DNA of 64,000 nt from Gallionellaceae bacterium (GCA_035531075.1 DATKTO010000026.1:49897-113896), one strand, 5' to 3'. Shown: positions 15,797 through 46,778, counted from the first letter of the stretch. The notes: generated by a model not told the origin, from the letters alone. Numbers and translations are program-made.

Positions 15797-15822
15797 ATGT
15801 TAAAAGGTCGAATATATAGCGG

Positions 15823-17127
15823 TTAGCGTCCAACGCAGTGGTATTCAAAACCGTGCGCGGACATAATCTCATGCTCGTAAACGTTACGCAGGTCGATGAA
15901 TATTTTCCCCCTCATCAGCGACTTGACTCGCTTCAGATCAAGCCCGCGGTACTGATTCCATTCAGTCATCAGTACTACCGCATCCGCACCATCGAAAGTC
16001 TCATAAACACCATCGCAGTACAGTATTTTCTCGGAAAGTAGCTGTTTTGCCTCCTTCATGCCTTCCGGATCATGGGCTCGTATGATTGCCCCTTTGTCCA
16101 TTAAAGGCGGAATAATCGCAAGCGAGGATGCATCGCGCATGTCATCAGTCTCAGGTTTAAAGGTCAAACCTAATACTGCAATCGTTTTTCCTGACTCTGT
16201 TCCCCCGAGAGCACTGCGAATTTTTTTTACCATACGCGCTTTTTGCGCCGCGTTTACCTCCACTGCTGATTCAACTATCCTGCAAGATGCACCATGCTCT
16301 TGAGCAATTCTGATCAGCGCCAGCGTGTCCTTAGGAAAACATGAGCCTCCATAACCTGGGCCGGCGTGTAAAAACTTCCTGCCGATGCGGTTATCCATTC
16401 CCATTCCTTTCGCTACGTCATGTACATCAGCACCAACTGCCTCGCAGAGTATGGACATTTCGTTAATAAAACTAATCTTGGTCGCGAGAAATGCGTTGGA
16501 GGCATATTTAATCAGCTCAGCGCTTTCCAGTGTGGTCACGAACACAAGCGTTTCGATCAGGCTGAGAGGCCGATATAACTCGCGCAACAGCGCCTCAGCG
16601 CGCTGATTATCTACGCCGATGATTACCCTGTCTGGTCTCATGAAATCTCCAATAGCGGAGCCTTCACGCAAAAACTCGGGATTAGACGCGACATCAAAAT
16701 CGGCATCTGGGTTTTCATCCTTGATTATTCTTTGTACTTGCCTCGCCGTTCCAACAGGAACAGTCGATTTGTCTACGATTACTGTATAGCCTTTCAGATG
16801 TTTGGCTATTTCCTTCGCTGCGGCATATACGTAGCTAACATCTGCATGCCCATCGCCACGTCTTGTTGGTGTGCCGACTGCAATAAAAATAAGATCTGCA
16901 TCAGCAACTGCCGAATTCATATCCGTCATGAAGTTCAGTCTACCGGTCTTGACATTCTTTTCAACCAGCGCATTTAGGCCGGGCTCATAGATTGGAATAT
17001 TACCCGCTATCAGATCATTTATTTTTTTCTCATCAACATCCATGCAGCTTACATTGGCTCCAAATTCAGAAAAACATGCACCGGAAACCAATCCTACATA
17101 TCCGGCTCCGATCATCAAAACATTCAT
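15823..17127 (-). CDS. ugd: UDP-glucose 6-dehydrogenase
   Basis: Start set at ATG 17125-17127 (MNVLMIGAGYVGLVSGACF). The catalytic region is GGSCFPKDT. Confidence 0.92.
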   Translation of the reverse strand: MNVLMIGAGYVGLVSGACFSEFGANVSCMDVDEKKINDLIAGNIPIYEPGLNALVEKNVKTGRLNFMTDMNSAVADADLIFIAVGTPTRRGDGHADVSYVYAAAKEIAKHLKGYTVIVDKSTVPVGTARQVQRIIKDENPDADFDVASNPEFLREGSAIGDFMRPDRVIIGVDNQRAEALLRELYRPLSLIETLVFVTTLESAELIKYASNAFLATKISFINEMSILCEAVGADVHDVAKGMGMDNRIGRKFLHAGPGYGGSCFPKDTLALIRIAQEHGASCRIVESAVEVNAAQKARMVKKIRSALGGTESGKTIAVLGLTFKPETDDMRDASSLAIIPPLMDKGAIIRAHDPEGMKEAKQLLSEKILYCDGVYETFDGADAVVLMTEWNQYRGLDLKRVKSLMRGKIFIDLRNVYEHEIMSAHGFEYHCVGR

Positions 17128-17373
17128 AAACGCTCTCCATATTTTTTCTTGTAATTCTCCAACCATATCAAAAAAAATATCTGCGTTATAAAAATATTTT
17201 GATAAAGATCAGGGTCAAAATTTACCCGTTTTAAATACTCCATAAAATTTCAATAAATGGATTATTGTCTTTGGCACTTGAATTATTTGCCTTTAACATC
17301 AAGATTGAAAAGTGATAGCTGGTTTAATTTTTCAGCTTATATAGATCTTTGAAAACACTAATTCATAAATAAT

Positions 17374-18423
17374 ATGAAAATATTGGTTACGGGTGGCGCA
17401 GGTTACATTGGATCGCACACTTGCATTGAGTTAATGAATGCAGGACATGACTTGATCGTTGTAGATAATTTTTCCAACAGCAAGCCGGCAGTTTTGGATC
17501 GAATTCGTGAAATATCAGGTAGGTCATTTACTTTTTTTATGGCCGATATTAGAAACAAAAAAGAAATGGAGAATATTTTTTCTCAGAGAAATATCGACGC
17601 GGTGATACATTTTGCAGGATTGAAGGCTATCGCCGAGTCCTTAGCAGAACCATTTATTTACTACGACACAAATGTCAGCGGTAGTTTAGTGTTATTCCAG
17701 GTCATGCAAAAATTTGGAGTAAAAACACTTGTATTCAGTTCTTCCGCTACGGTATATGGCGATCCTGCCAGTGTTCCAATCTTTGAGAGTTTCCCACTTA
17801 GTGCGAACAACCCATATGGAAGAAGCAAGTTGATGATCGAGGAAATTCTGCGTGACATCTCAGTAGCAGATCATTCATGGCGCATTGCATTATTACGTTA
17901 TTTCAACCCAGCAGGTGCCCATGAAAGTGGTTTAATCGGAGAGGATCCGAACGGCATCCCAAACAATCTGCTTCCGTACATTGCACAGGTTGCAGAGGGG
18001 CGGCTGGAAGCCTTATCGGTATATGGTGCTGATTACCCAACCATCGATGGCACCGGAGTAAGGGACTATATTCATGTAGTCGATCTTGCCATTGGCCATG
18101 TCAAAACATTCAACAAACTGCAAAATCAGACAGGTGTATTCACCTACAACCTCGGTACCGGGCGTGGAAATAGCGTGCTGGAGATGATTCGTGCCTTCGA
18201 GTACGCCAGTGGACGCCAAATTCCTTTCAAGATTGCGAAGCGTCGCAAGGGAGATATCGCAGTCTGTTATGCATCTACTGAATTGGCAGAACGTGAACTA
18301 GGCTGGAAGGCCGAGCGAAATATTGAACAAATGTGCGCTGACTCATGGAAATGGCAATCTACACATAGAGCGCAGACTCAAACCTCAAATGCATCGCTTT
18401 CTGTTGGGCGTGAAGGGGGCTGA
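17374..18423 (+). CDS. galE: UDP-glucose 4-epimerase
   Basis: 349 aa with MKILVTGGAGYIGSHTCIEL, SSSATVYG and YGRSKLMIEE (YxxxK). Confidence 0.93.
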   Translation: MKILVTGGAGYIGSHTCIELMNAGHDLIVVDNFSNSKPAVLDRIREISGRSFTFFMADIRNKKEMENIFSQRNIDAVIHFAGLKAIAESLAEPFIYYDTNVSGSLVLFQVMQKFGVKTLVFSSSATVYGDPASVPIFESFPLSANNPYGRSKLMIEEILRDISVADHSWRIALLRYFNPAGAHESGLIGEDPNGIPNNLLPYIAQVAEGRLEALSVYGADYPTIDGTGVRDYIHVVDLAIGHVKTFNKLQNQTGVFTYNLGTGRGNSVLEMIRAFEYASGRQIPFKIAKRRKGDIAVCYASTELAERELGWKAERNIEQMCADSWKWQSTHRAQTQTSNASLSVGREGG

Positions 18424-18460: not shown

Positions 18461-18739
18461 TCATTCATCGGCACCATACAACACGCGCACGATGGTTATC
18501 AAATCGTTGTCTTTTTTGTAGACTGCGATAAAAGGCATGCCCGTAATGACGACCTCCCTTGTTCCATCACAGCCGCCTTCTCGGCCACTGCCGGGTAGAG
18601 CCACCAGATTATTTAACTGTATTTTAAGTTCCGATACCACACGCATGGCTGACGCTACGCTATCCTGAAGTTGGATATTAGAAGCAATGGCAAAAATATC
18701 TCGTTCGGCTTCCGGGGTAATTTCAAGTTTGTTTGCCAT
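18461..18739 (-). CDS. parE: Type II toxin, RelE/ParE family
   Basis: Start set at ATG 18737-18739 (MANKLEITPEAERDIFAI...PFIAVYKKDNDLITIVRVLYGADE), the typical ParE layout. It overlaps the 3' end of the upstream gene by 17 nt. Confidence 0.8.
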   Translation of the reverse strand: MANKLEITPEAERDIFAIASNIQLQDSVASAMRVVSELKIQLNNLVALPGSGREGGCDGTREVVITGMPFIAVYKKDNDLITIVRVLYGADE

Positions 18740-19169
18740 CAATACGGGATTCCAATTCATTGAAGAAGTCATTTACTGGGCGCGTCATCCCCTCATCGGC
18801 AGACTTCAAGCCGATTTCAACTTGTTGGCGAAACCATTTATCTCGCTCCACAGCTTGATTAACCTTCTTCATGGCTTCTTTTCTATCCGGGCGTTTTCGA
18901 CCGGCGTCCTTCATTTGTTCCGGATCATAATTCGCCATGTCCACATTAAAGCGGCCTATGCCAATTGTCTTGCGCAGGTAATCGACAACTGTATCCATCG
19001 AGCGAAAAAAGCGAATCTTGCCGGTCCTTGCTGTAAGCACTTTTTCTGTCTCTCCGTACTTGACCGCAATATAAAATCCACTTGCCTCTCCCACTACCGA
19101 TGCGGATCGTATGGCATCGGCTTCTACCAAAGTTTTTAGTGTGGTTTGAGAAATTTTGTCATCAGCCAT
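18723..19169 (-). CDS. Putative antitoxin with a ParD-like C-terminal segment and an unassigned ~80-aa N-terminal domain
   Basis: 148 aa, in the upstream, overlapping position of a toxin partner. The C-terminal WFRQQVEIGLKSADEGMTRPVNDFFNELESRI resembles ParD-type tails. I did not recognise the N-terminal domain. Confidence 0.55.
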   Translation of the reverse strand: MADDKISQTTLKTLVEADAIRSASVVGEASGFYIAVKYGETEKVLTARTGKIRFFRSMDTVVDYLRKTIGIGRFNVDMANYDPEQMKDAGRKRPDRKEAMKKVNQAVERDKWFRQQVEIGLKSADEGMTRPVNDFFNELESRIDGKQT

Positions 19170-19406: not shown

Positions 19407-20711
19407 TTACGTTGTGCCGAACTTGGTTTCCACCATGACACCAATTTCTTTGAGGAAGGGGGTCGGCAATATACCACCAGCGCAGACAATGATTCCATCA
19501 TTTGCTAATGTCACTTCCTTTGTTTCGTGATTCAGCACCACGTTATCTTGTCCAACACGTTTGACCGTTGATTTGAGCATGATTTTGATTTTCCCCTTCT
19601 CGGCCAGAGCATTCAGGCGATCACGATTTTTCTGTTTCCCGCGTCCAAATGCCTCGCTGCGATAAGACAGCGTAACGGTCGTATCCGGCTCCTCCGCAAT
19701 GGCGATGGCAGCCTCCAGCGCACTGTCTCCTCCGCCCACTACCAATACATGCATGTTGCGGTATTGTTCAGGATCAATTAATCGGTAAACTACTTTCGGC
19801 AAATCTTCACCAGGTACCTCAAGTTTGCGCGGTGTACCACGTCGACCGATCGCAAGCAGAATGGCCCGAGTTTGATAGCTCTGTTTCGTACTTTTGACGA
19901 TGAAGCCATTATCGGATTTATTGATGGTCTCCATGCGCTCGTTATAATTTATTTTCATACCGGTTTTTTGTATGACTTTATCCCAGAACTCCAGCAATGC
20001 CTCCTTGCTGATCTCGCCCATCTTGACTTGCCCGATAATCGGTAACTTGACTGGGGCGGTCATTGCTATCTTATTGCGAGGGTAATGGAAAATTGCACCG
20101 CCCAGTGAACTCTCCTGTTCGAGGGTGACATAGCGTAATTTTTTTTCAATCGCGCCCAGAGTACCTGCCAGACCGGCAGGACCTGCCCCGATAATGACTA
20201 CATCAAGTGGATGAGCACTGTTCTTCAGCTTGCTGATGGAATCCATGGCCTGGCTTCCCTGGCTGGCTGATTTGCGTATGAGTCCCATGCCGCCCAATTC
20301 GCCAGCGATAAATATGCCCGGCACGTTTGTTTCAAAATTGGGGCTGATTTGGGGAATATCCATTCCCCTTTTCTCAGTGCCAAATACAAGAGAAATCGCA
20401 TCATGCGGGCAGGCAGCCATGCAAGCGCCGTGTCCTATGCAGATGGTAGGATGAATTAGCACAGCTTTGCCTTTGATTATCCCGATAGCGCCTTCAGGGC
20501 AGGCAGATACACAAGATGCTGAGCCCAGACATTTATTATGATCAATCAAGGGATGCAGCGAGGAAGGCTCGGTCAGACCTGCCTCCAAAACTTCCTTGAG
20601 TTGCTCCATCGCGCTGGACTCTTTGCGACTTCGGTTATAAAAGTAAAAAAACAACACTACTGCAAACGGTATCAAATATATTTCAAGACCATGAGTTTCA
20701 ATATTCAACAT
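19407..20711 (-). CDS. Membrane-anchored ferredoxin-domain / FAD-NAD(P) oxidoreductase fusion
   Basis: 434 aa with an N-terminal TM helix followed by basic residues. Two ferredoxin-like motifs are present (CLGSASCVSACP, CIGHGACMAACP). FAD and NAD(P) Rossmann motifs follow (VVIIGAGPAGL; VLVVGGGDSALE). Confidence 0.8.
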   Translation of the reverse strand: MLNIETHGLEIYLIPFAVVLFFYFYNRSRKESSAMEQLKEVLEAGLTEPSSLHPLIDHNKCLGSASCVSACPEGAIGIIKGKAVLIHPTICIGHGACMAACPHDAISLVFGTEKRGMDIPQISPNFETNVPGIFIAGELGGMGLIRKSASQGSQAMDSISKLKNSAHPLDVVIIGAGPAGLAGTLGAIEKKLRYVTLEQESSLGGAIFHYPRNKIAMTAPVKLPIIGQVKMGEISKEALLEFWDKVIQKTGMKINYNERMETINKSDNGFIVKSTKQSYQTRAILLAIGRRGTPRKLEVPGEDLPKVVYRLIDPEQYRNMHVLVVGGGDSALEAAIAIAEEPDTTVTLSYRSEAFGRGKQKNRDRLNALAEKGKIKIMLKSTVKRVGQDNVVLNHETKEVTLANDGIIVCAGGILPTPFLKEIGVMVETKFGTT

Positions 20712-20838
20712 TGATTTAATCCGATTTGTATAAATATGAATAAGATTCTGAGAATTGCGCGAGCAACTGCAAAAGATACCTGTTTTCTAACAATTATCAG
20801 GCTGGCGCAGAATAAATTTTATTTTATATAACATATAG

Positions 20839-20852
20839 TTGAATCTATTCAA
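20839..20852. promoter_or_regulatory. FNR/CRP-family-like palindrome TTGAATCTATTCAA (TTGA-N6-TCAA)
   Basis: Read directly in the 285-bp divergent intergenic region. It is 128 nt from the flavoprotein start and 145 nt from the TPR gene start. Confidence 0.3.
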
Positions 20853-20996
20853 TACCGACTCCCCAAATGGTATTTCTCCCCGGACATTCTGTCGCATATT
20901 ACCAAGCAATCATTAAATGCGCTACCACCGAAAGATTCGGTGTATTATTATTTTAAGATCGGATGCCAGTCACCGAATCTATTTCTCACTTACTTT

Positions 20997-21554
20997 ATGG
21001 ATCAAAAGATGAAAATCGTAAAGCAACGTATATGGGCAATTTCTGGTGGAACAGCATTGCTAGCTATGTTTTTTGGGCTTGGATATGCAGTTGGCAGCAA
21101 AACCCTGCAATATCCTGTTGAAACGGCAGGCAAATTAACCTCATCCGATATTGAGCATGCCTTTGCTGGCGTTAGATCCTCTGCACATGAACCGACAATG
21201 CATGAACCAGCCGCAATGGGACTGAGTGGATTGGTGGCGGGGTTAGAAAAAAAAGTGGCAGAAAATCCAAAAAATATTGACCAGCAACTGTTATTGGCAC
21301 AGACCTACAATGAGTTGAATAATCGTGCACAGAGCCTCAAGTTATTGCACTCCCTCAATAAGCAATTTCCCGAAAATGCACAAGTAAAAATCACGCTGGC
21401 AACCATCCTGATGACAGGGGCAGATAAACAAGAGCTCAAAGAAGCATACCAAATGTTTGATGCGGCGATCGAACTGAAACCCGAAGTCGCCAGTATGGCA
21501 CGCATGTACCAGGGTGAAATTAGAGTTGAGTTAGAAAATATGGACAGGCAATAA
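20997..21554 (+). CDS. Membrane-anchored periplasmic TPR protein, CcmI C-terminal-like
   Basis: Start moved to ATG 20997 (MDQKMKIVKQRIWAISGGTALLAMFFGLGYAV is the TM anchor). The TPR-like part LEKKVAENPKNIDQQLLLAQTYNELNNRAQSLKLL.. resembles the apocytochrome-binding part of CcmI/CycH. Confidence 0.55.
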   Translation: MDQKMKIVKQRIWAISGGTALLAMFFGLGYAVGSKTLQYPVETAGKLTSSDIEHAFAGVRSSAHEPTMHEPAAMGLSGLVAGLEKKVAENPKNIDQQLLLAQTYNELNNRAQSLKLLHSLNKQFPENAQVKITLATILMTGADKQELKEAYQMFDAAIELKPEVASMARMYQGEIRVELENMDRQ

Positions 21555-21609
21555 TAACTGTTCTTAAATTTTTTAATAACATCAAAAAGTTTATAGGCAT
21601 GGCAGGCAA

Positions 21610-22524
21610 ATGAATACAAATGCGCAATCAAATTCGGCGGGGCAGCAAAAGGAGCAACGCAAACCTCAGGCTAAAGTTCGTTCCAGGGAATATGGCTGGA
21701 ATATCTTTTTGCTCGTCATCTGTGGCGTACTCGCTATGGGTTACTTTATATCCACACAAAAATTTTACAAGCCAGGCGACGACTTGGGCTACAACATGGG
21801 CCTTATTGGCGGAATAATGCTTCTGGCACTGCTGCTATATCCTTTGCGCAAACGCGTCCGCATTTTAAGGAGTTTGGGTATTCTGCCCATCTGGTTTAAA
21901 TGGCATATGATTTTCGGGATTTTGGCCCCTACTCTGATCCTGTTCCACTCTACCTTTCACATTGGTTCGATCAATGCGGGCATGGCGCTCGTTGCCATGT
22001 TATTGGTCGCAAGTAGCGGCGTATTTGGCCGTTTCTTCTACACCAAAATTCACAATGGTCTATTTGGCAGACAAGCTAATCTCAAGGAGCTTCAAGCTGA
22101 GGTGTCACAGACGGGTAACGTAAAGTCATTACTAGGTTTTGCGCCAGAAATTGAAAAACAGCTGGACGAGTTTCGCGCTCGCACCACCAGTGTCTCCAAA
22201 GGCGGTGACGCAGAATTGTGGCATTTTTCAACGATAGGTATTAAGGCAACCCTGTTGTCCCGTTCCTTGGGAAAGCAATTGCATCATGCAATGTATTCGC
22301 AGGCGAAAGAAAAAAATTGGAACCCTGCTCAAATGCAACGCCTCGATCTCATGTACGAGGAAAACAACAAACAAATACAGCTTTACATCAAAGCAGTACG
22401 GGACGTTGCTCAGTTCCATACTTATGAAAGACTGTTTTCATGGTGGCATATCTTTCATATTCCGCTGGTATATCTGCTGATATTCAGCGGCATATTTCAT
22501 GTCATATCAGTGCATATGTACTGA
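21610..22524 (+). CDS. Five-helix membrane protein with two H-x13-H pairs (putative di-haem b)
   Basis: 304 aa with four N-terminal TM helices, a ~130-aa soluble insert and a final TM helix. His99/His113 lie in KWHMIFGILAPTLILFH, and His283/His297 lie in FHIPLVYLLIFSGIFH. Confidence 0.5.
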   Translation: MNTNAQSNSAGQQKEQRKPQAKVRSREYGWNIFLLVICGVLAMGYFISTQKFYKPGDDLGYNMGLIGGIMLLALLLYPLRKRVRILRSLGILPIWFKWHMIFGILAPTLILFHSTFHIGSINAGMALVAMLLVASSGVFGRFFYTKIHNGLFGRQANLKELQAEVSQTGNVKSLLGFAPEIEKQLDEFRARTTSVSKGGDAELWHFSTIGIKATLLSRSLGKQLHHAMYSQAKEKNWNPAQMQRLDLMYEENNKQIQLYIKAVRDVAQFHTYERLFSWWHIFHIPLVYLLIFSGIFHVISVHMY

Positions 22525-22543
22525 GTGACTCCCGCCTTCTTAT

Positions 22544-24313
22544 ATGCCAACATTTCTGCGTATTTTTCTATTAGCCGGCCTCACTCTGCTAGGGAGTATG
22601 CCTGTTCAAGCGGATTCAATAGGGGACATCTTATCGCCTGGAAAACTGATTGAGGGCCATGCCAAAGTAGAAAGCGAGTGCATAAAATGCCACAAAAAAT
22701 TTGATAAGGCCGCACAAAATTCGCTATGCAAGGATTGCCACAAGGATGTGGCAAATGACATTACTGAAATGCGCGGTTATCACGGCCATTTGAAAGAACA
22801 GAAAGACTGCAAGGAATGCCACACAGATCATAAAGGGCGAGATGCCAAAATTATCGTTTTTTCATCGGATAAATTTGATCATGCGCAAACCAATTTTCAG
22901 CTTAAGGGGAGGCATTTAAGTGACAAGGTCAAGTGCAAAGATTGCCACTTGCCTGCGAAAAAATTCCGCGAAGCGCCTTACGCATGTAATTCCTGCCACA
23001 AGAAGGACGATAGGCATAAAGGCGGTTTAGGTACTGATTGTGCGAAGTGCCACGAAGAAAAGGACTGGAAGACCACCCGCTTCGACCACGCTAAAACTGA
23101 TTTCAGACTGCTGGGCAAGCATAATGAAGTCAAGTGTAAAGAGTGTCATATTGATAACCGATATAAAGACACGCCAAAACTATGCAACTCATGTCACAAA
23201 AATGACGATAAGCATAAAGGTAATTTCGGCGGGAAATGCGAAACCTGTCACTTGGAAAAGGGCTGGAGAGAAATTATTTTTGACCACGGCAAACAGACAA
23301 AATACGCACTGCGCTGGAAACATAATGAAGCGAAATGCAGCAGTTGCCACAAGGGCGATGTATTTAAAGAAAAGCTTAAGACCGATTGTGTATCGTGCCA
23401 TAAAAGAGATGACAAGCATAAAGGAAACTTTGGCGGCAAGTGTGAAAGCTGCCACGTCGAAAAAGGCTGGAAAGAAATTCTGTTCGACCATGCCAAGAAA
23501 ACAAAATACCCATTGACAGGTAAACACATGACGGCCAAATGCAGCAGTTGCCACAAAGGTGACATGAAGGAAAAATTGCCGATGGACTGTTTCTCTTGTC
23601 ATAAAAAAGACGACAAGCATAAAGGAAACTTTGGCGGCAAGTGTGAAAGCTGCCACGTCGAGAGAGAATGGAAAGAAATTCTGTTTGACCATGCAAAGTC
23701 AACCAGGTATTCCCTGCTCGGCAAGCATAAGGAAGTGAGATGCGGCAGCTGCCACAAGGGTGATCTCTATAAAGACAAGCTGCAAACCAAGTGCATTGCC
23801 TGCCACGAAAGCGATGACAAACACAAAGGCCAGCAAGGCAAAAAATGCGAGTCTTGCCACAATGAGCAATCTTGGACGAAAGTAAAATTTGATCATAGCC
23901 TGTCAACCTTCCCCTTGTTGGGCAAGCATTTTCTGGTGGAGTGCAAAAAATGCCATGCGACGCCCTTATTCAAGGATGCGAAGTCAGACTGCTGGTCCTG
24001 CCATGAAAAAGAGGATGTGCACAAGCGACGCTTGGGAACTGCATGTGATAGCTGTCATAACATGCGTAACTGGAAAGCTTGGGACTTTGACCATAATAAA
24101 ACCGGCTTCAAGCTGGAGGGGCCACATGGCAAACTTGGCTGCTATCAATGCCACAAACAGCCCATGAATAAAAAACTAAGCCTCTCCAGTTCATGCGGCA
24201 GCTGCCACGCTGGCGACGATGTGCACAACGGTGAATATGGTCGTCAGTGTGAGCGTTGTCATATAGGAACTACATGGAAAAAAGTCCGGGTGGATGGGAA
24301 ATTTATACGTTGA
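22544..24313 (+). CDS. 24-haem c-type cytochrome (eight tandem cytochrome c7-type trihaem modules), secreted
   Basis: 589 aa with signal peptide MPTFLRIFLLAGLTLLGSMPVQA. I counted 24 CxxCH motifs in groups of three. The recurring module is KCxxCH..CxSCHxxDDKHKGxxGxKCxxCH..W....FDH..T.F.L.GKH. Confidence 0.9.
   Translation: MPTFLRIFLLAGLTLLGSMPVQADSIGDILSPGKLIEGHAKVESECIKCHKKFDKAAQNSLCKDCHKDVANDITEMRGYHGHLKEQKDCKECHTDHKGRDAKIIVFSSDKFDHAQTNFQLKGRHLSDKVKCKDCHLPAKKFREAPYACNSCHKKDDRHKGGLGTDCAKCHEEKDWKTTRFDHAKTDFRLLGKHNEVKCKECHIDNRYKDTPKLCNSCHKNDDKHKGNFGGKCETCHLEKGWREIIFDHGKQTKYALRWKHNEAKCSSCHKGDVFKEKLKTDCVSCHKRDDKHKGNFGGKCESCHVEKGWKEILFDHAKKTKYPLTGKHMTAKCSSCHKGDMKEKLPMDCFSCHKKDDKHKGNFGGKCESCHVEREWKEILFDHAKSTRYSLLGKHKEVRCGSCHKGDLYKDKLQTKCIACHESDDKHKGQQGKKCESCHNEQSWTKVKFDHSLSTFPLLGKHFLVECKKCHATPLFKDAKSDCWSCHEKEDVHKRRLGTACDSCHNMRNWKAWDFDHNKTGFKLEGPHGKLGCYQCHKQPMNKKLSLSSSCGSCHAGDDVHNGEYGRQCERCHIGTTWKKVRVDGKFIR
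23006..23870 (+). repeat. Tandem in-gene module repeats (periods 198/204/201/204 nt), including a 50-nt perfect duplicate
   Basis: The anchor codons (A/G)A(G/A)-CA(T/C)-AAA-GG recur at 23012, 23210, 23414, 23615 and 23819. The string gacaagcataaaggaaactttggcggcaagtgtgaaagctgccacgtcga is identical at 23411-23460 and 23612-23661. Confidence 0.9.
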
Positions 24314-24509
24314 TTTAGAGCATTTATATAAATAATTTCAACCATATACAAAATCTCATACCGTTCGTATCAATAATATAAATCCGATAAATGGGCTTGT
24401 CGTTTCATCAGCACCTAAAGTAAATTTTCAATTGCCGGCCAAAGAAAATTTAATGCAAGTGTTCAGTGATTGCTGCTTGCGTTAAAGCTTGGAAAAACAG
24501 GGGGGGAAA

Positions 24510-25490
24510 ATGACAAAAAAATTATTCAGAAGTCTGCAAACCAAGCATCGCTTAATGATGTCTGTATTCATTGCGTTTGCCATGATTATCCTGGCGCCTG
24601 GCGTTTCTGCGCAGGCCGTGCGCAACACCAGTGATTTCAATCACATGAGGACAGGTTTTCCCCTGACTGGCGTACACACGAATGTTGAGTGTGAAACTTG
24701 CCATGTAGGCGGAATATTCAAGGGCACACCCACCGACTGTGCGGGATGTCACTCAGCCGGCAGACGTGTTGTTGCAACACCCAAACCCGTCAACCATATC
24801 ATCAGCAATGCACCTTGCGAAACCTGCCATACCAATACGGTCACTTTCCAGGGGGCGCGCTTTAACCATATTGGCGTACAACCAAGAGCCTGCATGACCT
24901 GTCACAACGGTGGGATGGGACCGGGAAAACCGGGGGGGCACGTTGTAACCAACCTGGCTTGCGATAGATGCCACAGGACAAGTGCTTGGATACCGGCAGG
25001 TTATGATCACATTGGCGTTGCACCCGGCAGCTGTGCGAACTGCCACAATGGCAGCACTGCTACAGGCAAATCTCCGTCGCATGTTGCAACTACTGCCGCT
25101 TGCGACACCTGCCATTTAAATTTTACCAGTTTCTTGGGCGCTATATTTAACCATACGGGCGTAGCACCAGGAACCTGCGGTACCTGCCATAACGGCCAGA
25201 TTTCTGGCGCAACGACTAAAGTTTCAAACCATATTCCCTATACAGGCAACGCTTGTGACTCCTGTCATACCAATACCAGTAACTACACGTCATTTTTAGG
25301 GCCTGTAATGAATCACGCTGTGATAGGGACAACCGCCTGTAAGACTTGTCACGCTACAGGAACGTCATATCTGGGGAATATGGAGAAGAAGGCTGTTACA
25401 CATAATTCACCAACTGCTGTGGATTGCGCACAATCAGGCTGCCATAAACCTGGACTGAACGGTCGAGGTACGCTGTATTTAATCTGGTGA
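24510..25490 (+). CDS. Multihaem c-type cytochrome (10 CxxCH plus one CxxxxCH), secreted
   Basis: Start set at ATG 24510, behind a G-rich SD. The signal peptide is ..ILAPGVSAQA. The ~47-aa dihaem units have the form F(N/D)H.GV.PG.C..CHNG......H......C..CH. The terminal motif is DCAQSGCH. Confidence 0.88.
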   Translation: MTKKLFRSLQTKHRLMMSVFIAFAMIILAPGVSAQAVRNTSDFNHMRTGFPLTGVHTNVECETCHVGGIFKGTPTDCAGCHSAGRRVVATPKPVNHIISNAPCETCHTNTVTFQGARFNHIGVQPRACMTCHNGGMGPGKPGGHVVTNLACDRCHRTSAWIPAGYDHIGVAPGSCANCHNGSTATGKSPSHVATTAACDTCHLNFTSFLGAIFNHTGVAPGTCGTCHNGQISGATTKVSNHIPYTGNACDSCHTNTSNYTSFLGPVMNHAVIGTTACKTCHATGTSYLGNMEKKAVTHNSPTAVDCAQSGCHKPGLNGRGTLYLIW

Positions 25491-25629
25491 TCAATAATTC
25501 ATTCCTGGTGGATGCGATGTAATTTTTGTCGCAAGCCTGCACGCAGAATGGAATTTTTAAATAAATCAAAATAGTACTCAGCCCGCTTATTTTTCTAAAC
25601 GGGTTGCTTGCCAAAGGAGTTCAAGTATT

Positions 25630-27759
25630 GTGATGAATATAAAAGTACCCCAATCTAAAAGGGTATTTTGGGCACTTTCCGCTTTCGTATGGCTTTTTTC
25701 CGACCATGTAATCGCGCAACCGCTTGAGGATATTACTTTGCAGACTGAAACAGACAGGGTAATTGCGACTATCAGGCTGAGCAGTCCGGTGCATAACATC
25801 CGCTATTTTCCTGCAAAAAAAGGAAGGACACTGGAAATACTTCTTGATAAATTACCCGATGGCTCAGTCAGCGAAGAGTGGCTGGATAATGAAGTCTTAA
25901 AATCTCCGCCATCAAATTTGGCTCCTTCTTTTACGGTAAAGACCAATCTAAAAACTACCCAGCCAAAATTGATTATTGACTTCATTCGTGAAGCTGAATA
26001 CACGGTGAATGCAGGCAGAGACGGACGAAGTATTTTAGTTGCTATCAAAATCGATAAAGTTCTGCCCAGCACCGAGGGGGGGCTAGCTTTTTTACCTGCA
26101 GCAAAACCTTTGGCTGTAGCAACTGACATCGATAAACAGGCGGCTGCACTGATGCTGCAAGGGCGTAACTCATTGGCGGCATCCGATAATTTTGCAGCGA
26201 TTGATGCCTTCAATAAACTATTGTTGCTCCCTCCCAACGATTACACACAGGATGGGCAGGAGTGGGTAGGCGTTGCAAGAGAACGCGCCGGCCAAGCGGA
26301 TAAAGCCAAGCTGGAGTATGAGCTATATTTGAAACTCTACACCGGTGGTGAGGGTTTTGAGCGGGTCAAGGCTCGTCTGGCTAAGCTGGGCAGCAAACCC
26401 ACACCGCCTTCTGTCACGGCGGAGCGAGCGACCACAAAGAAACAGGCCAAGCAAACATTAGCCTACGGCAGCTTATCCATGCACTACTATCATGGTGCCA
26501 GCAAAATTGACACGATTGCTCCGTTTAACAACACATTAACTCAATCGACCTTTTCTGCGGTGGATCAATCTGCACTCCTCACCAGTGTGGTTGCGACTGA
26601 ACGCTTTATCAGCGAGGAATATGATAGCCGCATCGTGTTTCAGGATACGGCCTACGCCAATTTTTTACCGGGGAAGACAGGCAAAAACAAGCTGAATGCG
26701 GCCTATTTTGAAGTCAAGAACAAGCTGTCAGATTATTCTGCTCGCTTTGGCCGCCAGTCCTCAAGTGGCAGTGGCGTCATGGGACGTTTTGATGGTGCGG
26801 CCGCTGGCTTTGGCCTTACCCCGTCGATGCGTGTGAACGCGGTGGCGGGCCAGCTTTCCGATTTTTCGGCAGATTCAAAACCCGTGTTTTACGGTGCCAG
26901 CATAGATATGGGGCCAGTTACGCTTTACGCAATAAATCAGACGGTGGATGGCATGCTTGATCGTAGAGCTGTAGGTACGGAGCTACGCTATTTTGAACCG
27001 TCCAGGACTGCGTTTGCCGTACTGGATTACGATACCAGTTACTCCACATTAAATATAGCGATGTTTCAGGGGAGTTTCAGCACCAGTGCTGAGCGGACGT
27101 ATAACCTGCTGCTGGATCATCGCAGAGCGCCCTACATGAGCACGAGAAATGCACTGTATGGCGCAACTACATCATCCATATCAGATCTGCTGCAAATCAT
27201 GACTGAAGATGAATTGCGCGCTCTGGCTGCAACGCGCACGGGCGCTGCCAATATGGCGCAGCTTGGGGTGACCCAGCAGATATCGCAAAGATGGCAATTA
27301 GGCGGCGACGTCAGGCTATCCAGTTATGAAGGTTTACCCGCTAGTGGCTTAACGACTTTGGAAGGGCAATTACCCGCGACGCCCGCCACGGGAAACGAAT
27401 GGACTGTATCGCCCCAGCTGATAGGAAGCAATCTTTTTTCAAGCAGTGATGTAACGGTGTTTAGCCTGAGCTATATTGCCAGCCCGCTTTACAGAGCGCA
27501 GTCATTTTATGCCTATAGTCGCGCGAATCTTACTGACAGGTGGTCCATGGATTTGGCTATGCAACTCTTTCGGCAAAACTATGATTCGGGCATGTTGATG
27601 ACCCGAATCATGCCAATGTTTAGAACGGCATATCAGATGAAGCAGAGTCTCAGTCTGGATTTTGAGGCGGGACTGGAAAATAACCACATTGAAAACGCAG
27701 ACCAGTCATCGGATGGGCAACGACAGTTCTTCTCTTTGGGTTTCCGCTGGGACTTCTAA
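25630..27759 (+). CDS. Outer-membrane protein with an AMIN-like N-terminus, TPR middle and C-terminal beta-barrel
   Basis: 709 aa with AAGGAG 10 nt upstream of the GTG start and a signal peptide (..FSDHVIA|QP). A TPR-like helical segment spans about aa 170-260. The last ~430 aa are rich in alternating strands and end in ..FFSLGFRWDF (aromatic terminus). Confidence 0.7.
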   Translation: MMNIKVPQSKRVFWALSAFVWLFSDHVIAQPLEDITLQTETDRVIATIRLSSPVHNIRYFPAKKGRTLEILLDKLPDGSVSEEWLDNEVLKSPPSNLAPSFTVKTNLKTTQPKLIIDFIREAEYTVNAGRDGRSILVAIKIDKVLPSTEGGLAFLPAAKPLAVATDIDKQAAALMLQGRNSLAASDNFAAIDAFNKLLLLPPNDYTQDGQEWVGVARERAGQADKAKLEYELYLKLYTGGEGFERVKARLAKLGSKPTPPSVTAERATTKKQAKQTLAYGSLSMHYYHGASKIDTIAPFNNTLTQSTFSAVDQSALLTSVVATERFISEEYDSRIVFQDTAYANFLPGKTGKNKLNAAYFEVKNKLSDYSARFGRQSSSGSGVMGRFDGAAAGFGLTPSMRVNAVAGQLSDFSADSKPVFYGASIDMGPVTLYAINQTVDGMLDRRAVGTELRYFEPSRTAFAVLDYDTSYSTLNIAMFQGSFSTSAERTYNLLLDHRRAPYMSTRNALYGATTSSISDLLQIMTEDELRALAATRTGAANMAQLGVTQQISQRWQLGGDVRLSSYEGLPASGLTTLEGQLPATPATGNEWTVSPQLIGSNLFSSSDVTVFSLSYIASPLYRAQSFYAYSRANLTDRWSMDLAMQLFRQNYDSGMLMTRIMPMFRTAYQMKQSLSLDFEAGLENNHIENADQSSDGQRQFFSLGFRWDF

Positions 27760-27799: not shown

Positions 27800-28342
27800 T
27801 CAATCCGCGACTGGTCCAAAGTTCATGCCGATGGAGATACGCCGCTCGCCGCTGCGATTGATGCTTACTGAGTGGAGCACATTCGGGGCGAAGAAAACAA
27901 ACATGCCCGGCTGCGGCGTAACCAGCGTGCGGCTATGCCTGTCCACGACAACCAACTCTCCTGATTCTTGCGGGACTTGAACATAATAGACCCCGGACAG
28001 CATTTCATCATAGTCGTCATGGTCGTGTTCTGTAGTGGCCTCATTGGGCCCCATATCATTGATCCAGAAACCACTGCGCAATTTCTCATCGGGCTTTTGT
28101 AACAGATTTTTGGCATAGCTCTCAGCCTGCTCAAGCACCCGTCCTATCGCCTGAATGCGCTCGCGATGCAGATACAGATTCTCGTAACGACCGTCAAAAA
28201 AATGACTGCGCCGCAACCAATCCTCCTCACGTAATTGCACGTAGGCATCCATGATCTGCCGGTTAATATCTGCAGCTTCCGGCATGAAACCAATATGGAT
28301 GCGAGAGTTTTCCAACAGTGTTGAAGCGATCTGGTGTGTCAT
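27800..28342 (-). CDS. 2OG-Fe(II) oxygenase-like protein (2OG-FeII_Oxy_5 type)
   Basis: 180 aa. GFWINDMGPNEATTEHDHDD..LSGVYYVQVP..GMFVFFAPNVLHSVSINRSGERRISIGMNF matches the HxD...H double-stranded beta-helix pattern. Confidence 0.6.
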   Translation of the reverse strand: MTHQIASTLLENSRIHIGFMPEAADINRQIMDAYVQLREEDWLRRSHFFDGRYENLYLHRERIQAIGRVLEQAESYAKNLLQKPDEKLRSGFWINDMGPNEATTEHDHDDYDEMLSGVYYVQVPQESGELVVVDRHSRTLVTPQPGMFVFFAPNVLHSVSINRSGERRISIGMNFGPVAD

Positions 28343-28381
28343 GGCAAATCAGGTTCCGCGGATTCTATGCATGCTGAAATA

Positions 28382-29104
28382 TCAAAATTTCTCGTATCCA
28401 AGCAAATATCTCCATTGCCCCGCCTGTAGCGCGGACAGCGGTATGCGCCCGATACGGATGCGTTTCATTGCAAGCACTGTTAATCCCGCCCGTTCACACA
28501 TGCTGGCTATCTGGTGACGCTGATTACCCTTAACCGCGAAACGCAGCCTGGTTTCATTTTGCCAGCTTGCTTTGACTGGCAGCAGGCTGCCATTGATCCT
28601 AATTCCCTGGTTGAGGAGCGCGAGTCCCTCCGGCAAAATCTCACCGGCTACATCAACGATAAATTCCTGCTCAACTTTTGCTGCATCCGTAATCAATTTG
28701 CGCGCAACTCGCCAATCCTGGGTCAGTATTACCAGTCCGCTGGATTGAACCCCCAATGGGTCAGTCAGATTGAGATCCGCAAGATGACGCTTAATAAAAC
28801 GAATACCTGAGCGGTCATCTGCTGCCTGATTTTCCGGGGTAATCAGGCGCAATGCAGCCTCATGATCCTTTTCGATATCATAGCCGGCAGGTTTATGGAG
28901 CAGAATGGTTACGGGTTCAACGGGGACAGGTTTTGCGCCAGCCAAAAGCTCAATTTTGCTGTCAGGCTTTACGCGACTTCCAGGCTCTTCCACTACGATG
29001 CCATCCACAGTGACAAAGCCGTTTTCAATGTATTTTTCAGCTTCGCTGCGGCTGCAAGAAATTTTGCCCGCGAGAAGTTTGGCTAGGCGAATAGTATCGG
29101 TCAT
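28382..29104 (-). CDS. RNA pseudouridine synthase, RsuA/RluB/E/F family
   Basis: 240 aa with an N-terminal S4 domain (RLAKLLAGKISCSRSEAEKYIENGFVTVDG) and a core containing SSGLVILTQD. Confidence 0.75.
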   Translation of the reverse strand: MTDTIRLAKLLAGKISCSRSEAEKYIENGFVTVDGIVVEEPGSRVKPDSKIELLAGAKPVPVEPVTILLHKPAGYDIEKDHEAALRLITPENQAADDRSGIRFIKRHLADLNLTDPLGVQSSGLVILTQDWRVARKLITDAAKVEQEFIVDVAGEILPEGLALLNQGIRINGSLLPVKASWQNETRLRFAVKGNQRHQIASMCERAGLTVLAMKRIRIGRIPLSALQAGQWRYLLGYEKF

Positions 29105-29115
29105 ATCGAATCAGA

Positions 29116-29538
29116 CTAGTGCAGATGAATTTTTTCTATTCCCTTGTTTTCGTCATCGTCTTCATCTTGCCAATCTTCAACAATCAAAGGCTCATCCGAC
29201 AAGTCCCAGGCCATGGTATGAATTTCAATCTCGAACCATTCCCTGAACATCTCCAGTGTGCGGTCTTGTGGCCACAGCGCTTCATCATCTACCCAACCCA
29301 TCAGCATGTGCTCGAACAAAAAACTCCAGCGCTTTTCGACCCATTTCTCAGAGTCGGAATTGTCGTTGTATTGCGGAATCAGAAACACTTCATTGTCTTC
29401 CCGCAAATCTTCTACGGTCAGTGCCTCATCATCAGGATCAACATTATTCAGCCAGTCCAGGAAGGGCTGCCTGGGTCCCAGCAGTACCACCGTTCGATTG
29501 ATCGTAAAGCGCGGAATGCTGTTCATAATAAAATCCAT
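29116..29538 (-). CDS. Hypothetical highly acidic, Trp-rich cytoplasmic protein
   Basis: 140-aa ORF with coding-like composition and a C-terminal DWQDEDDDENK. I recognised no family. Confidence 0.5.
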   Translation of the reverse strand: MDFIMNSIPRFTINRTVVLLGPRQPFLDWLNNVDPDDEALTVEDLREDNEVFLIPQYNDNSDSEKWVEKRWSFLFEHMLMGWVDDEALWPQDRTLEMFREWFEIEIHTMAWDLSDEPLIVEDWQDEDDDENKGIEKIHLH

Positions 29539-29552
29539 TCAGAAAGTTAAAG

Positions 29553-29571
29553 CCCGCAACTGAATTGCGGG
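29553..29571 (-). terminator. Possible intrinsic terminator after the rubredoxin reductase operon
   Basis: The hairpin cccgcaa-ctgaa-ttgcggg has a 7-bp stem. On the minus strand it is followed by CTTTAACTTTCT, a weak U-tract. Confidence 0.4.
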
Positions 29572-29639
29572 AAGTTCTGGACTATATCAGAGGCGGGGCA
29601 GGCTTTGCCACCCGTGTGTCATTTTTTGGTAGCAGATTG

Positions 29640-30788
29640 TTATGATAATGACGGCAATTGCTGTGTGAGTGCAGCTTTCTCATTCACCGCCGATCCCATC
29701 AACGCAAAACCCAACAACTGGCCATTCGTATGATGGAATACGGCTTTGACGCCGTCAATATTACCCTCTACCTTCCATTCGCCCTGCGCGCCTGGCTCCG
29801 GCGGTGAAACTACCGTTGGGCAGGCCGGTGTCTTAACCGCCACTGGCATCGCCGGATAGTGAACAGGCATTGAGTTGCCTGTGAGTATGGGAGCCAATGC
29901 GCGGGCAGCATGCATAATGGGCATCACAAAAGGCAGCACGCGCCCTTCAACTTCTGCGCAATCGCCCAAGGCATAGATATCCTCAAAATTGGTTTGCAGC
30001 AATCCATTCACCACGATGCCACGGTTGATCTTGATGCCTGCAGCGGCTGCCAGGGCTGTGCGTGGCCTTAATCCAACCGCGGACAAAACCACATCCGCCG
30101 ATATGTTTTCACCGTTAGCCAAGGCCAGGCTAAGCTGCTCTCCCGCCTGCTCAATCTTCTGTGTGGTCGTGCCCAGATGAAACACCACCCCCTCCGCTTC
30201 CAGCTTGCGCTGAATGAAAGCTGCAGATTCCGCAGGCAACAAACGACCCAATAGCTGCGGCGCGAGATCGATCACATGCACATTGTATCCAGCTCCAACC
30301 AGATCATTGGCAAACTCGCAGCCAATCAGGCCTGCGCCGAGAATGACCACGTCCGTTTTTCCTTCGACAGCCTCTCGAAAACGACGATAATCATCCAGAT
30401 CATTCACCGACAACACCGCATCCGCTCCGTCGCCCTGCACGGGAAGACGGATGGGATCAGCTCCCAGAGCCAGTACGAGCTTGCTGTAAGGCAATACCTC
30501 TCCACTCACAGTCAGTTGTTTACGCAGTGGATCAATTGCGTTTACTTTCGAATTCGGCCTTACCTCGATTTTGACTTCAGCAGCCATTTTCGCCGCGTCT
30601 TTCATCAGCAAAGAATCGGCACTTTTTTTCTGCGCAAAGGCATTGGACAACATAGGCTTGGAATAGAAACCACCGTGATCCTCAGATAAAATAATGACAG
30701 GAGTTTCTGTATCAAGCTTACGGAATTCACGCGCTACCGTGTAGCCCGCAAGCCCGCTGCCAATGATGACTACGGGCTGTTGGCTCAT
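29640..30788 (-). CDS. Rubredoxin-NAD(+) reductase (FAD-dependent pyridine nucleotide-disulfide oxidoreductase)
   Basis: 382 aa with IIGSGLAGY (FAD) and ILGAGLIGCEF (NAD) motifs. It lies 2 nt downstream of a rubredoxin gene. Confidence 0.85.
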   Translation of the reverse strand: MSQQPVVIIGSGLAGYTVAREFRKLDTETPVIILSEDHGGFYSKPMLSNAFAQKKSADSLLMKDAAKMAAEVKIEVRPNSKVNAIDPLRKQLTVSGEVLPYSKLVLALGADPIRLPVQGDGADAVLSVNDLDDYRRFREAVEGKTDVVILGAGLIGCEFANDLVGAGYNVHVIDLAPQLLGRLLPAESAAFIQRKLEAEGVVFHLGTTTQKIEQAGEQLSLALANGENISADVVLSAVGLRPRTALAAAAGIKINRGIVVNGLLQTNFEDIYALGDCAEVEGRVLPFVMPIMHAARALAPILTGNSMPVHYPAMPVAVKTPACPTVVSPPEPGAQGEWKVEGNIDGVKAVFHHTNGQLLGFALMGSAVNEKAALTQQLPSLS

Positions 30789-30790
30789 GA

Positions 30791-30955
30791 TTACACCTCC
30801 ACCATCTCAAAGTCAGACTTGGCTACGCCGCAGTCAGGACATGACCAGTCAGCTGGAACATCATCCCAACGCGTACCTGGCTTGATACCGTGCTCGGGAT
30901 CGCCTTTTGCTTCGTCATAGATAAAACTGCACACCAAACATTGCCATACTTTCAT
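30791..30955 (-). CDS. Rubredoxin (54 aa, not in the supplied ORF track)
   Basis: My translation is [54 protein letters not shown], with the canonical CxxC...CPxCG iron site. Confidence 0.9.
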
Positions 30956-31005
30956 GATCGTTCCTTTTGATAAATGATATTAATAAATTTATATTAAACA
31001 GCTAA

Positions 31006-31473
31006 TTAAGCTTTGATCTTCGCCAGTGTATCGCGGTAGTGGTTGGCATGCTTCTCTTCTACACGAGCCAATGCTGCGAAACGCTTGGCAGCTTTTTCAA
31101 GTGTAGCCTTGAACTGTTGTGCATGGACCCTGGACTCGTCGATTTGTTCGTCGATTTCCGCAACTGCAGCATGGTTACCCTCTTCAATGGCCGTGTGACG
31201 GAACGAAGGGTACATTTCAGTGTATTCGTAGGTTTCGCCTTCAATCGCCATTTCCAGGCATCTTGCTGGCGTCATCGTCGCAGGGGGATAGAGCAGGTCC
31301 AGATGGCCCAATGCGTGTTGCACCTCCTGAGCAGCAGTTTCCTCAAATACTCTGGCTGTTTCCACGTCTCCCGCAGCGCGGCAGATTTTAGCAAAGTACA
31401 TATATTTGGTGTGTGCCATCGATTCGCCGGCAAAGGCGGATTCCAGATTTTGTATCGTGGTTGGTGCTTTCAT
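31006..31473 (-). CDS. Rubrerythrin-family diiron protein (no rubredoxin domain)
   Basis: 155 aa with NLESAFAGESMAHTKYMYFA, AQEVQHALGH, EGETYEYTEMY and EEKHANHY, which are ferritin-like ExxH diiron ligands. Confidence 0.85.
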   Translation of the reverse strand: MKAPTTIQNLESAFAGESMAHTKYMYFAKICRAAGDVETARVFEETAAQEVQHALGHLDLLYPPATMTPARCLEMAIEGETYEYTEMYPSFRHTAIEEGNHAAVAEIDEQIDESRVHAQQFKATLEKAAKRFAALARVEEKHANHYRDTLAKIKA

Positions 31474-31612
31474 AGTGTGTCTCCTTGTATGTTGTTGAGC
31501 GGTGCCTTCTGTGCACGGAACGCATATTAAGGATTTACAATGAATAAATATAATTGTATATTTAAACCAATATGATTTATTATTCTTATCAATTATCCAG
31601 GCCGGATTTCAC

Positions 31613-32533: not shown

Positions 32534-32554
32534 GATCCGCAAAAGCATGTGATT

Positions 32555-33439: not shown

Positions 33440-33529
33440 CAGCAACTCTCCCCGTTCCCAAACTTTCCAACAATAATATTAAAATTTCAGCCCAGACTGT
33501 AAACTGTATGAAACTCGGGCAAGCATATC

Positions 33530-46211: not shown

Positions 46212-46778
46212 ATGATGAAAAATAAATTATCAGTGGCAATATTGTTGGCAATTGCCCTGTCGTTAACCTGTGGACTGGCAGCCGCAGAAGCGGGATTGCT
46301 AGAGGCAATCTTTACGCCACTGCGCCAAAAAGAAATCGTCCCCGTCGATAACAAACAATACAAGGATGAATGCGGTTCCTGCCACTTTGCCTATCAACCG
46401 GGTTTGTTGCCTGCAAAATCCTGGGAAAAATTGCTGTCTCCCGAGGCATTGAGCAAACATTTCGGTGCCAACGCCGAGCTCGACAAGGACACGCTGACCG
46501 TTATTCATGACTATGCAATAGCGAACGCTGCAGACAAGTCTTACCACAAGCGCTCACGAAAGATCGCACAGTCCACCGCACAGGGCGAAGCCCCAATACG
46601 CATTACTGAGGTGCGTTACATCAAGCGCAAGCACCACGAGATCCCGGAAAGGATGATCAGTGGCAACAAGGATGTGAAATCCTTAAGCTATTGCGATGCC
46701 TGCCATACTCAAGCAGCCAAGGGCGTGTTCGATACGGATACGGTGAATATCCCGAACTTTCCGGATTGGGATGATTAA
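46212..46778 (+). CDS. Dihaem cytochrome c (DHC family)
   Basis: 188 aa with a signal peptide and two CxxCH motifs (CGSCH, CDACH). The surrounding sequence is DHC-like (FAYQPGLLPAKSWEKLL, RITEVRYIKRKHHE). Confidence 0.8.
   Translation: MMKNKLSVAILLAIALSLTCGLAAAEAGLLEAIFTPLRQKEIVPVDNKQYKDECGSCHFAYQPGLLPAKSWEKLLSPEALSKHFGANAELDKDTLTVIHDYAIANAADKSYHKRSRKIAQSTAQGEAPIRITEVRYIKRKHHEIPERMISGNKDVKSLSYCDACHTQAAKGVFDTDTVNIPNFPDWDD

Follow-up and report, generated by a model that had tools for sequence, protein, structure and literature searches.

The porin-cytochrome cluster PCC3, predicted nine years ago, is among the most widespread candidate extracellular-electron-transfer systems of neutrophilic iron oxidisers. 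As published it consists of four genes, which encode a porin, an extracellular multihaem cytochrome (MHC) rich in T, S, A and G, a periplasmic MHC with very many haems, and an inner-membrane protein (IMP) of about 300 aa with five transmembrane helices, an SGxxG motif on the fourth helix (TM4) and a W-x3-H-x13-H motif on both the third and the fifth (TM3 and TM5) (He et al. 2017, PMC5566968). The second, T/S/A/G-rich MHC is predicted to be extracellular, with a published range of 10-35 haem sites. Among Gallionellaceae, the periplasmic subunit has 21, 24 or 27 sites and the commonest extracellular subunit has 10-18 (Hoover et al. 2023, PMC9900912). Here we analyse a cluster of six genes, A to F, at positions 19407-27759 of a 64,000-nucleotide stretch of the genome of a Gallionellaceae bacterium (GCA_035531075.1, DATKTO010000026.1:49897-113896), a stretch that we call the window. 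The cluster is almost certainly a member of PCC3, and to the four published genes it adds a divergently transcribed iron-sulfur (FeS) flavoprotein, A, as a conserved fifth partner. The best explanation overall, to which we assign a probability of about 60%, is a PCC3 conduit fed by a split NOX-like module, formed by A and the IMP, C, that most simply exports electrons.

PCC3 identity of the cluster

The first-pass annotation of the window had listed six open reading frames (ORFs), with gaps of 55, 19, 196 and 139 nt between successive genes from B to F, and we recovered all of these from the sequence; motif counts also agree with its haem numbers for D (24 CxxCH) and E (Table 1). Of the 37 CxxCH motifs in six-frame ORFs of 60 aa or more across the 64 kb, 34 fall in D and E, a concentration far above chance. 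A hypothetical protein from a Gallionellaceae metagenome-assembled genome (VMV48_08115) matches C at 100% identity; among the other cluster proteins, HUX90637.1 corresponds to A, HUX90640.1 to D, HUX90641.1 to E and HUX90642.1 to F.

Every published PCC3 motif and haem number (PMC5566968, PMC9900912) is found in this cluster. C was confirmed as a five-helix protein with two H-x13-H helices: its His pairs lie on TM3 (W95-x3-H99-x13-H113) and TM5 (W279-x3-H283-x13-H297), the SGxxG motif (S136-G-V-F-G140) lies on TM4, and a helical insert of about 130 aa faces the cytoplasm. These motifs are invariant in 14 homologues. The 24 haems of D belong to the 21/24/27 series, and E, with 11 sites within the 10-18 range and a composition of 12% T, 11% G and 9% A, is a minimum-size form of the T/S/A/G-rich subunit. 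E had been described as a second secreted cytochrome of the periplasm; it corresponds instead to the subunit for which an extracellular location has been predicted. Judged from published descriptions, the two PCC3 clusters of Sideroxydans lithotrophicus ES-1 (Slit_0867-0870 and Slit_1446-1449) share with the window cluster the four core genes, their order, the IMP motifs and the host family. The earlier suspicion of kinship with PCC3 candidates was thus well founded, and the label of a non-canonical composition was overstated, because the gene content is the canonical PCC3 make-up.

Synteny carries the same conclusion. A pattern scan with the IMP alignment, using one genome per GTDB species, gave 80 loci, nearly all from Gallionellaceae, which we annotated by tblastn and ORF calling; downstream genes were scored where the contig was long enough. 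C homologues are present in all 80 loci, D homologues in 74, E homologues in 71 and F homologues in 53. The order is IMP, MHC with 21, 24 or 27 haems (following the IMP in the 74 loci that have it), MHC with a variable number of sites (8-91) and outer-membrane protein (OMP) ending in R-W-D-F. IMP identity to C ranges over 45-83% and is mostly 45-61%, the value of 83% being reached in locus L001 alone. The genes flanking the window cluster are shared only with L001, its closest relative among the compared loci, which sets the cluster boundary at A to F. The core C-D-E-F is conserved in order across Gallionellaceae, and A is a conserved fifth component. What had been proposed as a six-gene set therefore stands with regard to A and to the C-D-E-F order, but not with regard to the tetratricopeptide-repeat (TPR) gene B. 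The cluster adds a member to a predicted, experimentally uncharacterised system, which reduces its novelty without removing it.

Table 1. Genes of the window cluster, in window coordinates, with their proposed roles
Gene and product	Position	Strand	Role
A, membrane-anchored FeS-flavoprotein	19407..20711	-	proposed cytoplasmic module through which electrons enter or leave
B, small TPR protein with an N-terminal anchor, putatively of CcmH/CycH/NrfG type	20997..21554	+	clade-specific accessory, not core
C, PCC3 inner-membrane protein (IMP), 304 aa, five transmembrane helices	21610..22524	+	putative di-haem b transmembrane carrier
D, secreted 24-haem cytochrome c	22544..24313	+	predicted periplasm-spanning PCC3 wire
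E, secreted T/G/A-rich cytochrome, 10 CxxCH + 1 CxxxxCH	24510..25490	+	PCC3 "extracellular" MHC, smallest form
F, outer-membrane protein, predicted 22-strand barrel	25630..27759	+	PCC3 porin

Probable partnership of the flavoprotein and the inner-membrane protein

Three kinds of evidence indicate that A and C probably work as one unit. The first is adjacency: in 53 of the 80 loci an A homologue with 66-90% identity lies divergently, about 300 bp from the IMP gene, and A is more conserved across loci than the IMP itself. The second is gene fusion. An exhaustive phmmer search of 1.84 billion representatives clustered at 50% identity gave 822 A-family proteins at E<1e-30. Among the best 150 of these, A is joined to an IMP-like domain in 39, with A preceding the IMP in 35 (fusions of about 735-770 aa) and following it in 4; the others are 53 stand-alone proteins, 21 with long extensions, 17 with other architectures and 20 fragments. 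The IMP-like half of the fusions is matched by a hidden Markov model of PCC3 IMPs and nearly always contains both W-x3-H-x13-H motifs. In an alignment of 15 fusions, this motif pair (four His, two Trp) and (S/T)GxxGR are invariant. When A comes first, its anchor helix is followed by the cytoplasmic domains and then by the five-helix part; when the IMP comes first, the five-helix part (N-in, C-out) is followed by the anchor helix of A, which returns the chain to the cytoplasm. Both orders place the FeS and FAD domains in the cytoplasm, which explains why a flavoprotein of a soluble type has an N-terminal transmembrane helix.

The third is neighbourhood in distant genomes. A metagenomic scan with the fusion alignment gave 80 further loci, in which the identity of A to the query is 32-53%. 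In 8 of these loci A and an IMP-like gene are fused, and in 50 the two are neighbours; genes with at least three CxxCH motifs (mostly 10-47) lie alongside in 54, and nine loci have F-like OMPs. The arrangements are of three kinds: divergent, co-directional (IMP, A, MHC, MHC) and fused. The A-IMP unit, split or fused and NOX-like, thus extends well beyond Gallionellaceae, and the earlier inclusion of a divergent FeS-flavoprotein in the cluster is borne out by the adjacency, the fusions and the metagenomic neighbours. This flavoprotein is not mentioned in He et al. 2017, in Hoover et al. 2023, in the supplements of the former or in those of Zhou et al. (locus tags only), and a literature search on the locus tags flanking both ES-1 clusters found no paper.

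The A family also has members of other architectures. The 21 representatives with long extensions are 945-1377 aa in length, and in four of them (P0385, P0386, P0388 and P0393) an IMP domain is absent and A continues into a long low-complexity linker, rich in Pro and Ala, that leads to a TPR-like region at the C-terminus. In one locus (L096, 2867-4651) a Sel1 and ankyrin-repeat protein of about 594 aa is encoded between A and the OMP gene, and its homologues recur in 17 A-bearing loci, 16 of them metagenomic.

A itself begins with a hydrophobic helix followed by R/K residues and contains a Fer4 dicluster domain and a Pyr_redox_3 domain (3.6e-41, Pfam), in agreement with its first description as a membrane-anchored FeS-flavoprotein. 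Its two-dinucleotide-fold FAD and NAD(P)H domains are of the TrxR/YpdA type, and its closest solved relatives in a PDB sequence search are YpdA/Bdr (7a7b, 6e-27) and the TrxR-type ferredoxin-NADP reductases. Proteins of the TrxR and YpdA families lack the transmembrane helix and the ferredoxin domain that A carries. A motif scan found no CxxC anywhere in A, and its NCBIfam scores are far below the family cutoffs (161.9 against 339.9 for TIGR04018; 84.7 against 343 for TIGR01292); we therefore ruled out a disulfide reductase. The two ferredoxin motifs, C-x2-(S/A)-x2-C-x3-CP and C-x2-H-x2-C-x3-CP, are atypical and invariant in 48 of 48 PCC3-linked homologues, and the His-type motif characterises almost all of the wider family. 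By the motif rules for ferredoxins, this suggests a [3Fe-4S] cluster, a His-ligated [4Fe-4S] cluster or both.

C is a putative di-haem b transmembrane electron carrier. In its His geometry, with one pair spaced by 13 residues on each of the third and fifth helices, it resembles the cytochrome b of the ferric-reductase domain (FRD) found in NOX and FRE enzymes and in the MsrQ-Fre system of Escherichia coli, although membership of that family is not demonstrable. As proposed for the A-C pair, these systems also have a cytoplasmic NAD(P)H flavoprotein, fused or separate, and an electron acceptor outside the membrane. They differ from the pair in three respects: homology of C to Ferric_reduct or MsrQ was not detected, the dehydrogenase in the window is of the TrxR type with a ferredoxin domain rather than an FNR-type module, and its electrons would go to a multihaem wire, not to O2, Fe(III) chelates or MsrP. 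The window also encodes an MsrP/MsrQ pair on the + strand (48398-49962), with an Oxidored_molyb domain protein at 48398-49363 (4.8e-32) and a Ferric_reduct protein at 49363-49962 (1.3e-20).

Proposed route and direction of electron flow

The remaining core genes would supply the path from the inner membrane to the cell surface. In D, a CxxCH spacing of 16-18, 18 and 32-33 residues is repeated eight times, which amounts to eight c7-type trihaem units; the protein is K-rich, with 24.5 aa per haem. A PDB sequence search gave a single match, 3ouq (E=0.003), described as a "cytochrome c family protein", which we take to be a fragment of the Geobacter dodecahaem cytochrome GSU1996. In E, the last ~60 residues, comprising the final CxxCH and D-C-x4-C-H-K-P-x-G-x2-G-x-x-Y-x2-W, are conserved in most homologues, whose haem numbers range from 10 to 42. 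Because this C-terminal module is constant, the variation in haem number lies N-terminal to it; the module is encoded just before the OMP gene and may dock E to F. One outer MHC homologue is encoded by an ORF (L019, 12969-20888) that runs off the end of its locus after at least 2640 aa and contains 91 CxxCH motifs. This number exceeds the record of 85 sites in He et al. 2017 (PMC5566968).

F has a signal peptide and a C-terminus ending in RWDF. In an AlphaFold2 model of F from a 26-sequence alignment (pLDDT 80), a beta domain (residues 32-140) is followed by five TPR-like helices (166-255) and then by a barrel of 22 strands (275-709), which contains a helical insert (505-535). The model thus has the TPR region and beta-barrel that had been noted earlier. 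The N-terminal part that had been called AMIN-like gave no Pfam match even at E<=10, and we dropped that label. TPR helices precede the barrel in the polysaccharide exporters PgaA, BcsC and PelB, and it could be supposed that F is such a porin, unrelated to cytochromes and next to them by chance. Exporters of this type have a 16-strand barrel. F matches no Pfam or NCBIfam family, MtrB_PioB and PgaA/BcsC included, and of its 26 homologues 14 match TPR_9 and none matches MtrB_PioB. A Foldseek search with the F model returned only generic large barrels, all with low TM scores (<=0.48), headed by the protein-translocating FimD ushers; PgaA and BcsC were not prominent, a PelBC chain stood at rank 48 with TM scores of 0.2-0.3, and MtrB was absent from the top 50. 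No specific relative of F, whether MtrB or a porin for exopolysaccharides, emerged from this search. F homologues follow the outer MHC gene in 53 of the 80 species-level loci and occur in metagenomic loci as well, and this synteny effectively refutes chance association with an exporter.

The cluster resembles MtrCAB, MtoAB and PioAB in combining a large barrel, in or on which a multihaem cytochrome would sit, with periplasmic and outer cytochromes. It differs from them in that F is outside the MtrB_PioB family, E is outside the MtrA/DmsE family and the periplasmic partner has 24 haems. The MtrB barrel is reported to have 26 strands, compared to 22 predicted in F. The statement that the small cytochrome does not read like MtrA was confirmed: E scores 32.4 bits against TIGR03508 (DmsE/MtrA), with a cutoff of 192.2, and finds no MtrA chain in the PDB at E<=1. 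By description, the Pcc system of Geobacter (OmaB/OmbB/OmcB) and the Uet system of Tenderia are likewise porin-cytochrome clusters with periplasmic and outer MHCs; PCC3 was reported to have no homology to the Geobacter system (He et al. 2017, PMC5566968).

In the mechanism that we propose, A would oxidise cytoplasmic NAD(P)H and pass electrons from FAD to its two FeS clusters, one of them probably His-ligated. A would dock on the conserved cytoplasmic face of C and reduce the inner of two bis-His haems b, which would be stacked across the membrane on TM3 and TM5. Together A and C would form a split NOX-like transmembrane oxidoreductase, with the transmembrane helix of A as a sixth helix. The outer haem b of C would then reduce D, which is probably long enough to cross the periplasm, and D would reduce E, whose C-terminal module may sit in or on the 22-strand barrel of F and deliver electrons to the cell surface. 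B would be an optional CcmI/NrfG-like periplasmic TPR helper. Exporting electrons to an extracellular acceptor such as Fe(III), the whole would act as a trans-envelope NAD(P)H:acceptor reductase and not as an Fe(II) oxidase.

The potential of NAD(P)H is about -320 mV, and outward movement of electrons is favoured by the membrane potential. Export is the simplest direction for these reasons, and because the reverse would be uphill and the cluster has no coupling subunit. This argument is largely thermodynamic, and we regard net outward flow as evenly balanced against the alternatives. The same parts, A included, might run inward, carrying electrons from Fe(0), a cathode or reduced minerals along the haem wire to the di-haem b protein and to A, which would reduce NAD(P)+ for CO2 fixation. 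The A-IMP-MHC module is established and autotrophic iron oxidisers need reductant; in addition, the His content of D (49 for 24 haems) and E (23 for 11) allows bis-His ligation throughout, and such haems are typically low-potential. From Fe(II), however, this route would on bioenergetic grounds be 0.2-0.4 V uphill and would also work against the membrane potential, and an energy-coupling subunit is again what the cluster lacks. We consider inward reduction of NAD(P)+ improbable.

The model published for PCC3 also runs inward, in this case to quinones: electrons from extracellular Fe(II) or minerals would pass through E and F and then D to a quinone-reactive cytochrome b, the IMP, and on to the quinone pool, and the flavoprotein would be peripheral or regulatory. 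Expression data from cultured iron oxidisers point in both directions. In S. lithotrophicus ES-1, both PCC3 copies are down-regulated on Fe(II) compared to thiosulfate (PMC8788666), and they are weakly detected in proteomes; in Sideroxydans CL21, the IMP of the second copy (PCC3_2) is significantly up-regulated when iron is oxidised. The A-IMP fusions in both orders and the adjacency in three arrangements speak against uptake to quinones, since they suggest that the direct partner of the IMP is a cytoplasmic flavoprotein. For C, moreover, neither signs of a quinone site nor homology to known quinol dehydrogenases were found in Pfam, NCBIfam or the PDB; the six proteins gave no match to the NapC/NirT (CymA) family in Pfam or NCBIfam, as the first-pass annotation had stated. 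We consider the published model unlikely as an account of this cluster, while giving it appreciable weight.

Several observations weigh against a conduit fed by A and C that exports electrons, and some of them support the published model. The host family and most carriers of PCC3 oxidise iron, which, like the induction of the IMP in CL21, favours uptake. At least 23 of the 80 species-level loci lack A beside the IMP. Many of these have unrelated housekeeping genes (EamA, aminotransferase, DapD) upstream of the IMP, and several assemblies contain two PCC3 loci, one with A and the other without. The two halves of a midpoint-rooted IMP tree each contain loci with A, and most of those without A group in one block, so loss or relocation of A is likelier than a division into two cleanly separated subtypes, which we rejected. 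The FAD, FeS cluster type and NAD(P)H use of A and the haem b of C are read from motifs. Searches of Pfam, NCBIfam and PDB sequences found no match to C, and a PDB profile search stayed empty even at E<=10. The AlphaFold2 model of C, built on 14 aligned sequences, is of low quality (pLDDT 60); a Foldseek search with it returned nothing below E=0.48. We dropped C as a member of the FRD family after comparing the IMP profile by hhalign with the window's own MsrQ, our FRD reference, which gave a probability of 0.8%. The fusions have only sub-threshold matches to Ferric_reduct and DUF4405 (P0390, a 750-aa fusion with A first, scores 16.8 bits against PF01794, cutoff 28). Papers of 2025-2026 still term PCC3 functionally unverified.

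Export might also serve a non-respiratory purpose in the periplasm or at the surface, such as storing electrons in the 35 haems, protecting the cell from oxidants or preventing Fe(III) crusts, in parallel with electron delivery from MsrQ-Fre to MsrP. The split NOX-like logic is that of MsrPQ, a genuine copy of which is in the window, and haem numbers are large and vary across loci from 10 to 91. The dedicated OMP and an outer cytochrome of variable length with a fixed C-terminal module argue for a path across the outer membrane, and we think a non-respiratory role very improbable.

Beyond the export conduit itself, we tentatively propose, at somewhat less than even odds, that PCC3 is the outer part of an unrecognised trans-envelope NAD(P)H:extracellular-acceptor oxidoreductase and not, or not only, a conduit for iron oxidation, and that its engine belongs to a new family of split and fused proteins. 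If so, the engine would consist of a TrxR-type FeS-flavoprotein and a five-helix di-haem b protein, NOX-like in function, non-homologous in origin and widespread beyond Gallionellaceae, and iron oxidisers would gain an export or reversible electron route that bypasses the quinone pool. A dedicated cytoplasmic FeS-flavoprotein of NAD(P) type as partner of the IMP offers a hypothesis, open to test, on how the pathway ends in the cytoplasm and would challenge the default model in which electrons enter the quinone pool. It would bear on the use of PCC3 genes as environmental markers for iron oxidation, and the single-polypeptide A-IMP fusions may be more tractable biochemical targets.

The TPR gene and the surroundings of the cluster

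B is a putative CcmI/NrfG-like helper, a recurrent but dispensable companion of PCC3, and possibly an apocytochrome chaperone. It has three candidate starts (GTG 20940, ATG 20997, ATG 21009) and lies outside any ccm operon. For the CcmI-like description, B itself scores 29.8 bits, below the Pfam cutoff of 42, and most of its 117 homologues have PF23914 (CcmH/CycH TPR). Its standing as a conserved member of the cluster was not upheld, since 79 of the 80 species-level loci lack it, L001 being the only one to have it, and since it stands alone at the same site in relatives. In other loci A and the IMP are about 300 bp apart, too close to accommodate B, and the presence of a CcmI-like TPR gene between flavoprotein and IMP is specific to the window's clade. 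Three related loci (L085, L086 and L164) share with the window the position of B between A and the IMP. At least eight distant metagenomic loci have larger CcmH-TPR genes immediately upstream of A.

B occurs alone, at the same chromosomal site, in L082 and L083 (9001-9558) and in L084 (5095-5652). There it is flanked by a ParE/ParC-like pair and by 2OG-oxygenase, RluF and rubredoxin-reductase genes, as is the window cluster, and no remnants of A or of C to F were found at these three loci. In the L084 genome, PCC3 lies on a different contig (L020) and lacks B. One insertion or deletion alone does not account for both the lone B and the A/B/C-F order of the window. One close relative has a further order: at L085 (5965-16502) the genes are A (on the - strand), the D homologue, B, the IMP, an 818-aa MHC and the OMP. 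The D homologue of this locus (588 aa) is 73% identical to D, and the periplasmic cytochrome gene has thus moved between A and B.

Directly upstream of the cluster (18461-19169, - strand), a ParE toxin gene (PF05016) overlaps an ORF of 148 aa; the counterparts of this ORF at related loci have PF28031 (ParC-like). Related genomes are polymorphic for the presence of PCC3 at this site, and the pair marks the left boundary of the polymorphism. Farther upstream, ORFs at 14789-18423 resemble, by eye, an NAD-dependent epimerase, a UDP-glucose 6-dehydrogenase and a GalE-like epimerase. Downstream (27800-33445) are conserved chromosomal genes outside the cluster, namely a 2OG-Fe(II) oxygenase (Pfam on the window ORF), an S4-domain protein and, from Pfam matches of the L082-L086 homologues, a rubredoxin reductase, a rubrerythrin, a LysR regulator and a glycerol-3-phosphate-dehydrogenase-like gene. 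A scan for promoters and terminators gave counts near expectation, with 14 promoter-like sites compared to 14.6 in shuffled sequence and 16 terminator-like sites compared to 10.3, and thus carries no information on co-transcription. Elsewhere in the window, the only multi-CxxCH ORF besides D and E encodes a dihaem cytochrome c of the DHC family (46212-46778, + strand; PF09626, 7.8e-36), which is located between typA/bipA and gltX and is preceded by an unannotated 209-aa ORF (45515-46144).

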